A stretch of 64,000 nucleotides of DNA from Escherichia phage NHEP29, in sequence record PQ511150.1, one strand, 5' to 3'. This document shows positions 18,164-19,613 of this stretch, piece by piece. A program made the position numbers and the translations under genes. How positions within the stretch are numbered: position 1 is the stretch's first letter; the number at the start of each line of letters is the position of its first letter. Under the pieces are notes generated by a model that saw only the letters and a list, made by a program, of their open reading frames with translations, ran no database searches and was not told the origin of the DNA.

Positions 18164-18712
18164 TTAACGAGCCCATTTAATGATTTCTGTAATCAAATAA
18201 TTACGTTCGCTTGCATTAAATCCTATAACTTTGTTAGCACCATCATGATTAAGTAATTGATACGTTTGGATTTTGTTATGAATTGCAAACTCTTCAAAAT
18301 ATGAAATGACTGTATTAAAACCGAATGAAGACAAAGTAATAAGGTCGTCTTCAAAACTTTCAGTCATTTCGTTACGTGTTAAAATAATTGTGAACACATC
18401 ATGGTTTTGGCAAAGACGAACATAATCCTGTTCATAAACGTCAAGAACCGAGTCCACATCTTGTCGAATACGTCCATAAACCCAGTTACTAATATATCCA
18501 CGGTCTAACAGATAAATCTTAGTAGGGTCTAAATAATTCAACATCGTTTCGAAACAGCCGACTTCATTTCGAGACTTAACATCGAAACGCCCATCAACTG
18601 TTCGTTTAGGGAAATCAATCTTTACATATCTTTCACTAATTTCCATTACATCATTAATGAAAGTTGTTTTACCAGCATTATCCGGGCCATCTACTAAAAT
18701 AATTTTAGCCAT
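18164..18712 (-). CDS. P-loop kinase-like protein (thymidylate-kinase-like Walker A)
   Basis: 182 aa; ILVDGPDNAGKTT near N-terminus; GAGGA SD; occupies part of the T4 beta-gt slot. Confidence 0.6.
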   Translation of the reverse strand: MAKIILVDGPDNAGKTTFINDVMEISERYVKIDFPKRTVDGRFDVKSRNEVGCFETMLNYLDPTKIYLLDRGYISNWVYGRIRQDVDSVLDVYEQDYVRLCQNHDVFTIILTRNEMTESFEDDLITLSSFGFNTVISYFEEFAIHNKIQTYQLLNHDGANKVIGFNASERNYLITEIIKWAR

Positions 18713-18713
18713 T

Positions 18714-19613
18714 TTATTCCTCGATTACGACATCTTCGTATTTAGGTATATTATACGGTGAAGAAATTAAAGCATTAAAGTAGATGAACTCACCAAGACC
18801 CGGATGGAATACTTCTTCAGGATTTTCGAAATATTGAATCTTCGGACGTCCTTTAAGAATTTGATAGTACTCAGTTTTAGTTGGATTAAAAATTCGAATC
18901 AGCGCTTCTTCAGGATACTTATTTCTGTCGAAACTATTATTTGGATCAGTTATATAAAGCGGTTGACCTAATTGAATTGCGCATTCAACCACTTGTTCAA
19001 AACGATAGCATGGGTCACTAATTCGAAATGGATGAAAAATACCATCTAGATGAATAGGAGCCAAATCACCTACAAGACGCTGCATGACGGAAGGACGTAT
19101 AACTTTCTGCGTTACGATAATCTTATTACCATCTGCACCTGCGTTAACCAGCACTTCTTTTTGACGTTCATTCAACACAGTAGTTTGAAGTGAACGATTA
19201 ACAGACAACATGTCGGTTTTTAAGAATTCATCAATATAAAAACGTGGTTTATTAGGGTCTGCAGTGATATTGAAATTGAATTCTACATCAAAAGCGCCGT
19301 CATATCCAGTGATATCTGTGATTAGAAAATCACAATCATAATAAGCAATTAATGAATCAACCACAAATTCATTTTCAGACCAGAAATATTTACGAGTGTT
19401 ATACGCGTTATCTTTATACCATAATGGAACAAACTTAAATTCTGGGAAAAGACGTTCACATTCTTTAATATCAGATGCATTACGTGGATATGTAATCACA
19501 TCACCCGGATTAGCACGGTGCAAATGAAGTTGGAAGTTGCCATCCTTAAGGATAGCATACTGTCCAGTTTCATAAGACCGCATACTCAAGATAGGTACGC
19601 GGAAAATAGCCAT
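18714..19613 (-). CDS. hypothetical protein (299 aa) in beta-glucosyltransferase position
   Basis: TAATG overlap with gene 42 stop; no similarity to T4 beta-gt as remembered. Confidence 0.6.
   Translation of the reverse strand: MAIFRVPILSMRSYETGQYAILKDGNFQLHLHRANPGDVITYPRNASDIKECERLFPEFKFVPLWYKDNAYNTRKYFWSENEFVVDSLIAYYDCDFLITDITGYDGAFDVEFNFNITADPNKPRFYIDEFLKTDMLSVNRSLQTTVLNERQKEVLVNAGADGNKIIVTQKVIRPSVMQRLVGDLAPIHLDGIFHPFRISDPCYRFEQVVECAIQLGQPLYITDPNNSFDRNKYPEEALIRIFNPTKTEYYQILKGRPKIQYFENPEEVFHPGLGEFIYFNALISSPYNIPKYEDVVIEE

Follow-up and report, generated by a model that had tools for sequence, protein, structure and literature searches.

In phage RB69 and Acinetobacter phage DLP3 cytosine is fully replaced by mono- or poly-arabinofuranosyl-5-hydroxycytosine, ether-linked at C5, and not by 5-hydroxymethylcytosine (hmC) (Lee et al., NAR 2026, PMC13326640); for RB69 DNA mono- and di-arabinosyl-5-hydroxy-deoxycytidine were shown. 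According to the same study RB69 gp48 and DLP3 gp80 are flavin-containing enzymes, shown experimentally to convert deoxycytidine monophosphate (dCMP) to 5-hydroxy-dCMP (5hodCMP) using O2, and an Asn at ThyA position 169 marks such 5hodCMP synthases. The uridine diphosphate (UDP)-arabinofuranose is made by an isomerase, a bifunctional AfhE-type enzyme and an AfhF-type HAD phosphatase, and the AfhE-type nucleotidyltransferase of phage HY126 was shown to make UDP-arabinose (PMC13326640). The GenBank record of HY126 was found to carry no Afh names. Table 1 of PMC13326640 lists RB69p045 as “nucleotide kinase” and RB69p046:47 as “arabinosyltransferase 1”, both on structural grounds. Later arabinoses are added on DNA. 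The first arabinosylation was not reconstituted on DNA containing 5-hydroxycytosine, where single transferases were negative in vitro, and the authors cannot tell mononucleotide from DNA as its acceptor (PMC13326640). The same two-transferase layout was described for Mosigvirus NP in the Durham-collection paper. Here, we analyzed two neighbouring open reading frames (ORFs) of Escherichia phage NHEP29 (sequence record PQ511150.1) within a stretch of 64,000 nucleotides (nt), called the window throughout. Both lie on the minus strand, an ORF of 182 amino acids (aa) at 18164..18712 and one of 299 aa at 18714..19613.

The two ORFs very likely represent translationally coupled genes of the Mosigvirus arabinosyl-5-hydroxycytosine pathway, namely a first arabinosyltransferase of GT-B fold (299 aa) and its partner, a deoxynucleoside monophosphate (dNMP) kinase of thymidylate kinase (TMPK) fold (182 aa). 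Their membership in this pathway as such is secure. The 182-aa protein was found 97.3% identical to RB69p045, the 299-aa protein 98-99% identical to RB69p047 and RB69p046. The adjoining gene at 19613..20329 (minus strand) encodes a 238-aa thymidylate synthase (TS) homologue (Pfam Thymidylat_synt, 2e-15), the orthologue of the 5hodCMP synthase RB69 gp48. It was 99.2% identical to RB69p048 and near-identical to the PDB entries 9iqc, 9ir2 and 9iqu (E-value of 8e-161), and it reads MRSQNCAVVMQLD, corresponding to the published signature of Asn169 plus Asp177 in ThyA numbering, if no indel intervenes. The original prediction, made from the sequence alone, had called this neighbour gene 42, which had to be corrected as the identity to T4 gp42 was 25%. 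At the DNA level positions 18000-20400 were 98.5-99.2% identical to many Mosigvirus genomes including JS09, Shf125875 and Bas46 “ChristianSchoenbein”, and the gene order uvsX-45-46:47-48 is common to the window and RB69. The two genes are not unknowns but RB69p045 and RB69p046+047, already assigned in the 2026 literature; what had been flagged are two genes of a pathway published in 2025-2026 and no new system. Likewise, hmC had been assumed as substrate base, but the base of the RB69 type is 5-hydroxycytosine with ether-bound arabinofuranose (PMC13326640).

The proposal that the pair occupies the slot of the T4 beta-gt gene was borne out. In the ORF listing both genes are flanked by uvsX (16893..18065, minus strand; Pfam T4_UVSX_C, 1e-38) and the TS-family ORF, and the wording is accurate since the same interval of T4 (uvsX-segA-b-gt-42) holds segA and beta-gt. 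Neither a beta-gt homologue nor unrelated accessory genes were found there, and both genes are part of a DNA-modification gene cluster. The stop codon of the TS homologue shares 1 nt with the ATG of the 299-aa gene. The latter ends with GAGGAATAAaATG, with a Shine-Dalgarno sequence inside and the ATG of the kinase gene 1 nt past the stop. From this packing, the genes for the TS homologue, the 299-aa and the 182-aa protein appear arranged for translational coupling. The RB69 reference (L001, NC_004928, around position 24947) carries one extra A compared to the window around 19074 (AAATCACACTAC versus AAATCAC-CTAC in the DNA alignment), which splits the transferase gene of that record into ORF046 and ORF047, while the 299-aa ORF is intact in the window and in hundreds of relatives. 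The authors regard the split as a sequencing error (PMC13326640), and our DNA alignment agrees. Apart from this 1-nt insertion no difference of substance was found between RB69 gp46:47 and the 299-aa protein.

The 299-aa protein is the orthologue of RB69 gp46:47, DLP3 gp79 and Thanatos TH1_063, the last with 47.5% identity. With these proteins, designated “arabinosyltransferase 1” (Lee et al., NAR 2026, PMC13326640), it shares the position directly downstream of the 5hodCMP synthase, the GT-B fold and the structural neighbours. The profile searches that had been suggested gave nothing for this protein, with no Pfam or NCBIfam match at E-values of 0.1 to 1 and no PDB sequence match with the family profile. 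Structure prediction for GT-A or GT-B folds, also suggested, was the sole informative route for its annotation. An AlphaFold2 model built from a 56-sequence alignment (predicted local distance difference test score of 94.6) showed two Rossmann-like domains with an interdomain cleft. Its Foldseek neighbours, all with a probability of 1.00, were HepE, MshA (3c4q), the tetrahydrobiopterin glucosyltransferase and UDP-GlcNAc 2-epimerases. The best structural neighbours were 6kih and 3c4q. Judged by this model, the protein is a compact GT-B glycosyltransferase. The expectation that it would not resemble T4 beta-gt was confirmed, as BLASTP gave a best E-value of 3.6 and hhalign with the 56-sequence family profile a probability of 0.1%. 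In the same way no relationship of the family to RB69 gp3 was seen with hhalign (probability 0.6%). As the HY126 structure 9iqz/9ir0 is an orthologue of gp3 (E-value of 5e-249), the 299-aa family is without a solved structure. The T4 beta-gt, and the alpha-gt, are similar in the slot between uvsX and the TS homologue and in the broad GT-B architecture, presumably with the common purpose of a sugar coat on C5-oxygenated cytosine. T4 beta-gt acts with UDP-glucose on hmC of duplex DNA; base and sugar of the RB69 lineage are 5-hydroxycytosine and arabinose (PMC13326640). The isoelectric point was considered as a proxy for DNA binding (5.05 for the transferase, 9.05 for T4 beta-gt, 6.33 for RB69 gp3) and was dropped, because DNA-acting enzymes of the gp3 type are not basic either. 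Mono-arabinosylated phages such as Thanatos have no other transferase than this protein, which must therefore be the one to set the base-proximal sugar. Most likely it transfers the first arabinofuranose from UDP-arabinofuranose to the 5-OH of 5-hydroxycytosine, where we infer donor and acceptor.

The 182-aa protein begins with MAKIILVDGPDNAGKTT, and the TMPK-like Walker A motif noticed originally, ILVDGPDNAGKTT, is present at its N-terminus. The hidden Markov model of the family aligned the P-loop (GPDNAGKTT to GLDKSGKTT), the FPxR and the DR motifs, the latter DR(Y) in thymidylate kinases, with vaccinia and yeast TMPK, and the residues of all three motifs were found invariant in the stand-alone kinase family. 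The best family member matched PF02223 with an E-value of 2e-4. Thus, the 182-aa protein has the TMPK fold, yet is not a canonical Tmk. Common to both are the fold, a P-loop with Asp (GxDxxGKTT), FPxR and DR. It differs by an identity of only about 14%, by scores below the Pfam and TIGRFAM thresholds, by its length (182 versus about 205 aa), by a strict linkage to a glycosyltransferase and by its substrate, which is probably a modified dCMP rather than deoxythymidine monophosphate (dTMP). Alignment of the family to E. coli Tmk with hhalign covered the P-loop only, so that base-contact residues were not comparable; an idea obtained by eye, namely an invariant Leu58 in place of the Arg that binds thymine O4, could not be verified and was not used. 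The T4-type dNMP kinase gp1 (RB69 gp159) is likewise a P-loop dNMP kinase of these phages and phosphorylates C5-modified dCMP. Structural and sequence similarity of the 182-aa protein to T4 gp1 (PDB 1dek) was not found. The relatives RB69 gp45, DLP3 gp78 and RL38J1 gp214, annotated as “nucleotide kinase”, resemble it in sequence (97% identity for RB69 gp45), in the TMPK-like fold and in their constant company of first transferase and TS homologue; their substrate or role is not given in published work, and the fusion to the transferase in distant relatives is described here. The 182-aa protein is very likely a TMPK-fold dNMP kinase, and its place as obligate companion of the transferase is secure.

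In order to compare the distribution of the two genes, 50,697 phage GenBank records were searched by tblastn. The 299-aa transferase was found in 348 records and the 182-aa kinase in 343, with matching counts for Escherichia (176/176), Acinetobacter (57/57), Shigella (15/15) and Klebsiella phages (26/25). Both ORFs are real conserved genes. From IMG/VR, 46 loci were obtained in which the transferase was at least 33% identical. The kinase was present in 44 of the 44 loci with enough flank, and the TS homologue, directly upstream of the transferase, likewise in 44 of 44 with enough flank. The order TS, transferase, kinase was observed in 33 loci, and the kinase was located a few genes upstream in 11 (Dhakavirus, Klebsiella and Proteus phages). 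A total of 14 metagenomic loci (L032-L045) consisted of the triad of TS homologue, transferase and kinase only, and within 6 kb arabinose-activation genes were absent. This triad was also described for RL38J1, a hexose user (PMC13326640). These triad-only loci tie the kinase to the nucleotide/transferase step and not to sugar activation. A role of the P-loop protein as sugar kinase was consequently rejected, and it is further disfavoured by the finding that sugar phosphorylation in this pathway falls to the C-terminal domain of the 561-aa AfhE-like protein (PMC13326640). Of the roles offered originally, those of transferase and nucleotide-type kinase of the modification pathway stood, and that of sugar kinase was lost. 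Overall, synthase, first transferase and kinase form a conserved three-gene core module, to which sugar-activation genes, further transferases and the U32 gene described below are added variously. A different combination was seen in six distant metagenomic phage contigs (L051, L053, L055, L057, L072, L073), where a transferase relative is accompanied by a U32 gene and by a TMPK-like kinase, either separate or fused. No TS-like 5hodCMP synthase was detected there within the 10-15 kb covered, and it could sit elsewhere on the genome. L053 additionally contains a dUTPase_2/MazG-like gene and a second glycosyltransferase adjoining a DnaE polymerase.

A profile search of 1.84 billion representatives yielded 232 relatives of the transferase. 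In at least 8 of them (P0375, P0377, P0383, P0387, P0397, P0406, P0407, P0360) a P-loop domain of about 190 aa came after the transferase domain, and in P0381 the order was reversed with the P-loop domain first. At least 9 fusion representatives with pairwise identities below 50% were counted. The fused P-loop domains matched the kinase family of the window in hhalign with a probability of 95.2% (E-value of 2.6e-8, 133 columns), with the P-loop, the (D/T)R..S[DN].VY block and the C-terminal helix in register. In the fused forms the DR motif reads TR (TRLF) and the P-loop reads GK[DSN][TS] (GKDT, GKSS, GKNT). Two fusions were located in phage contigs, L072 beside isomerase, AfhE-like and U32 genes, and L073 beside dCMP deaminase, dUTPase and U32 genes. 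As fusions occur in both orders, we argue that transferase and kinase act as one unit. The pairs of sucrose-phosphate synthase/phosphatase (SPS/SPP) and trehalose-6-phosphate synthase/phosphatase (OtsA/OtsB) may be viewed as an analogy only, as they have no sequence relationship to the transferase-kinase pair. In these pairs a GT-B enzyme, often fused to the next enzyme, glycosylates a phosphorylated small molecule. Another kind of fusion was noticed in P0286, P0296, P0297, P0314, P0318 and P0348, where the transferase domain is preceded by an N-terminal KdsC-like HAD phosphatase domain (DFDG...ITGD...GDD). This domain showed no sequence relation to the HAD protein of the window (21823-22224).

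The fusions also leave room for a rather improbable alternative, namely a P-loop subunit without catalytic function, for nucleotide binding or scaffolding, which might tether the transferase to the deoxynucleoside triphosphate (dNTP) synthesis or replication machinery. Fusions prove physical linkage and not catalysis, and the fused forms have replaced the Asp of the DR motif and vary in the residue after the P-loop Lys. In the stand-alone family, however, the Walker A Lys, the Arg of the DR motif and the residues of the FPxR region are invariant, as expected of an active nucleoside monophosphate kinase. It is quite improbable that the kinase simply supplies thymidylate as an ordinary phage dTMP kinase, has nothing to do with the modification and came to lie here by historical accident, even if the fold, the three motifs and the label “thymidylate kinase” in many GenBank records point that way. 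The kinase is essentially confined to carriers of the transferase (same genera, 343 versus 348 records), absent from T4 at the uvsX-42 locus, fused to the transferase in at least 9 relatives and far below the curated dTMP kinase cutoffs. Moreover, these phages already possess a kinase of the gp1 type, and T4 gp1 handles dTMP.

For the 299-aa protein, the report on Thanatos TH1_063 gave rise to a different, very unlikely reading, a UDP-pentose pyrophosphorylase making the activated sugar. TH1_063, from uridine triphosphate (UTP) and xylose-1-phosphate, gave a product with the tandem mass spectrometry pattern of UDP-xylose and showed no transfer to DNA, dCMP, dCTP or cytosine. But GT-B is not a nucleotidyltransferase fold, the cluster already has a sugar-1-phosphate nucleotidyltransferase domain (Pfam NTP_transferase), shown in HY126 to make UDP-arabinose, and the 299-aa family is also found in loci without sugar-activation genes (L032-L045). 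Since the acceptors tried in the Thanatos paper were all unhydroxylated cytosine substrates, its negative transfer result is uninformative. In Shewanella phage Thanatos-1 (L003, 5995-6897) the label “UDP-xylose pyrophosphorylase” for TH1_063 conflicts with the GT-B fold of the family and the orthology to the first arabinosyltransferase. There, the next gene, TH1_064, is the orthologue of the kinase (44% identity), which the Thanatos paper does not mention, TH1_065 is the U32 protein and TH1_066 a chorismate mutase. A beta-gt replacement plus a nucleotide or sugar kinase in a T4-like hmC-glycosylation pathway has a close to negligible probability, as the T4 beta-gt position of the genes and the arabinosyl-hmC first reported for RB69 by Thomas et al. 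2018 are opposed by the re-determination of the RB69 base as ether-linked arabinosyl-5-hydroxycytosine, by an adjacent enzyme 99% identical to a proven 5hodCMP synthase with the Asn169 signature, and by the lack of sequence homology to beta-gt.

We are aware of several observations which weigh against the assignment of the pair as first arabinosyltransferase and partner kinase. The literature surveyed demonstrates no enzymatic activity for the 299-aa or the 182-aa protein, and TH1_063 (300 aa) was reported to make UDP-xylose from UTP and xylose-1-phosphate without transfer (Thanatos paper). The 299-aa family carries no sequence signature from Pfam or of the CAZy type, Glycos_transf_1 and Glyco_trans_4 included, and an EX7E-type motif was not located; its C-terminal conserved block, viewed by eye and without structural superposition, is FHPGLxEF (His270-Pro-Gly, Glu275) with no recognisable EX7E. 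The kinase scored below every curated dTMP kinase threshold (12 bits versus 27 for PF02223, 16 bits versus 83.25 for TIGR00041). Finally, as RB69 gp159 already converts 5hodCMP to 5hodCDP in vitro (PMC13326640), the need for a second kinase is unexplained if the transferase acts later on DNA. A transposon-mutagenesis preprint on Bas46 and LC53 contains no essentiality data for the two genes.

For the first arabinosyltransferase and its partner kinase, two versions of the mechanism were weighed. The flavin-dependent synthase would make 5hodCMP and act with transferase and kinase as a core module. Following classical T4 logic, the kinase would then make 5hodCDP and the transferase would later act on DNA. 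Alternatively, the transferase would arabinosylate the mononucleotide 5hodCMP, and the dedicated TMPK-like kinase would phosphorylate arabinosyl-5hodCMP, which might be too bulky for the T4-type gp1 kinase. The phage polymerase would then incorporate a dCTP analogue that had been glycosylated beforehand, leaving only the second and third sugars for addition on DNA. We give both versions nearly equal weight, the classical one slightly ahead. One catalytic unit of transferase and kinase on the nucleotide pool is therefore taken as a serious possibility, somewhat short of an even chance. The fusions, the second kinase and the negative DNA assays, all three unexplained by the classical version, would be explained by glycosylation of the mononucleotide, which is also favoured by the strict co-occurrence and by the gene order TS, glycosyltransferase, kinase, identical to the proposed reaction order. 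Because of the fusions and the redundant T4-type gp1 kinase, our lean toward the mononucleotide is stronger than that of the literature. Against it stands that, to our knowledge, every known phage DNA glycosylation is post-replicative. Furthermore, 5-hydroxy-deoxycytidine was incorporated when synthase and gp159 were expressed in E. coli, and the later arabinoses are added on DNA (PMC13326640).

Of the whole pathway, the first glycosylation and the task of the additional kinase are understood least. As far as the accessible literature goes, the fusion and co-occurrence evidence is new; it sharpens the explicitly open acceptor question and makes the choice between mononucleotide and DNA directly testable. 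If the mononucleotide were the acceptor, this would be the first pre-replicative DNA glycosylation, would change the accepted rule that sugars are added post-replication, and would offer an enzymatic route to glycosylated dNTPs. A large group of phages that are candidates for therapy, among them Mosigvirus, Acinetobacter, Klebsiella, Serratia and other T4-like phages, is shielded by arabinosyl-5-hydroxycytosine from restriction and CRISPR.

Further upstream in the cluster, a 386-aa protein of the U32 family (20608..21768, minus strand; RB69 gp50; Pfam Peptidase_U32, 9.5e-11) was identified as a true Pfam member with 41.9 bits for PF01136 at a cutoff of 22.4. Compared to E. coli RlhA by hhalign (E-value of 2.8e-4, 217 columns), hC.YrDsCYi.H was aligned to lCvaYsGqCYisH, so that both share a C..Y...CY..H block. 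RlhA is the 5-hydroxycytidine synthase of E. coli 23S rRNA; O2-independent hydroxylations have been linked to the U32 proteins RlhA, TrhP and UbiU/V, and for UbiU/V the oxygen donor was shown to be prephenate (PMC10990095; PMC6599085). Lee et al. label the U32 protein only “sugar or heterocycle reductase” (PMC13326640). A Pfam CM_2 chorismate mutase (E-values of 1e-9 to 1e-11, above the cutoff) was found directly between the U32 gene and the TS homologue in 14 related loci, the loci listed for the observation on U32 and chorismate mutase being L003, L006, L007, L009-L012, L018-L020, L023, L024, L027, L028, L065 and L066. Chorismate mutase is the prephenate-making enzyme. In the window itself no chorismate mutase is located beside the U32 gene. 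The U32 protein is the most conserved protein of the cluster, with 82% identity to Thanatos-2, compared to 47% and 44% for transferase and kinase, respectively, in Thanatos-1, and it was found in 221 phage records versus 348 for the transferase. It was not found in the five Acinetobacter-phage loci and the one Pseudomonas-phage locus examined, and the hosts in both cases are aerobes. Other phage contigs carry U32 homologues of 50-58% identity amid genes of deoxynucleotide metabolism, and the six distant contigs noted above have transferase, kinase and U32 gene with no TS homologue in the DNA covered. These observations suggest the U32 protein as a candidate O2-independent cytosine C5-hydroxylase alongside the O2-dependent TS-like synthase. 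As the TS-type synthase needs O2, the U32 protein would be a good candidate for an oxygen-independent route to 5-hydroxycytosine. Such a route via U32 protein and chorismate mutase, if true, would explain how gut phages make 5-hydroxycytosine without oxygen. Within the searchable literature no paper was found that brings U32 together with 5-hydroxycytosine and phage.

Between the U32 gene and the TS homologue lies a 79-aa ORF (20372..20611, minus strand; RB69p049; PHROG 8601), to which no function was assigned. It occupies or adjoins the position of the chorismate mutase of related phages. We could not show that it is a divergent chorismate mutase, as no Pfam match was obtained even at an E-value of 10 and the identity to the CM_2 proteins of Kanagawavirus and Winklervirus phages was 15-20%. 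It coexists with the chorismate mutase in Yersinia and Pectobacterium phages and one metagenomic locus (L011) and is found alone in Mosigvirus.

Beyond the U32 gene, all on the minus strand, follow the genes for the sugar donor, with the roles of the first two taken from PMC13326640. A 133-aa HAD phosphatase (21823..22224; RB69 gp51, AfhF-like; PHROG 1238) matched the capsule-biosynthesis phosphatase family TIGR01689 with 4e-13. The 561-aa bifunctional sugar-1-phosphate nucleotidyltransferase and kinase (22209..23894; RB69 gp52:53, AfhE-like), the maker of UDP-arabinofuranose, showed an N-terminal Pfam NTP_transferase domain (8.5e-10) and matches similar to APH/fructosamine kinases at residues 350-400. 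The 211-aa arabinose-5-phosphate isomerase (24076..24711) was assigned from its position as the orthologue of RB69 gp55, and the orthologue found in the near-identical locus L005 matched RB69p055 with 2e-136. The DNA polymerase gene is located at 24752-27463, and on the other side of the pair the gp41 helicase gene at 15107-16549 and, between it and uvsX, a gp40-like ORF were found, again on the minus strand.

The composition of the region carries no island signature, with a GC content of 0.31-0.36 slightly below that of the neighbours. A promoter and terminator scan of 17900-24200 gave counts not above shuffled expectation (19 versus 23.6 and 3 versus 2.8, respectively). Unflagged by this generic scan, the stretch from the kinase stop to the uvsX start (18066-18163, minus strand) contains AAATGCTGTATAACCCTTAGTATATAAT, seen by eye as a TGCT-type box about 12 nt upstream of a perfect TATAAT, which looks like a T4 MotA-dependent middle promoter for uvsX. 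In Erwinia phage Virsaitis27 (L065) a Seg-like homing endonuclease gene (4352-4990) was observed between the HAD phosphatase and U32 genes of the modification cluster, an insertion which echoes the T4 segA gene adjoining beta-gt.

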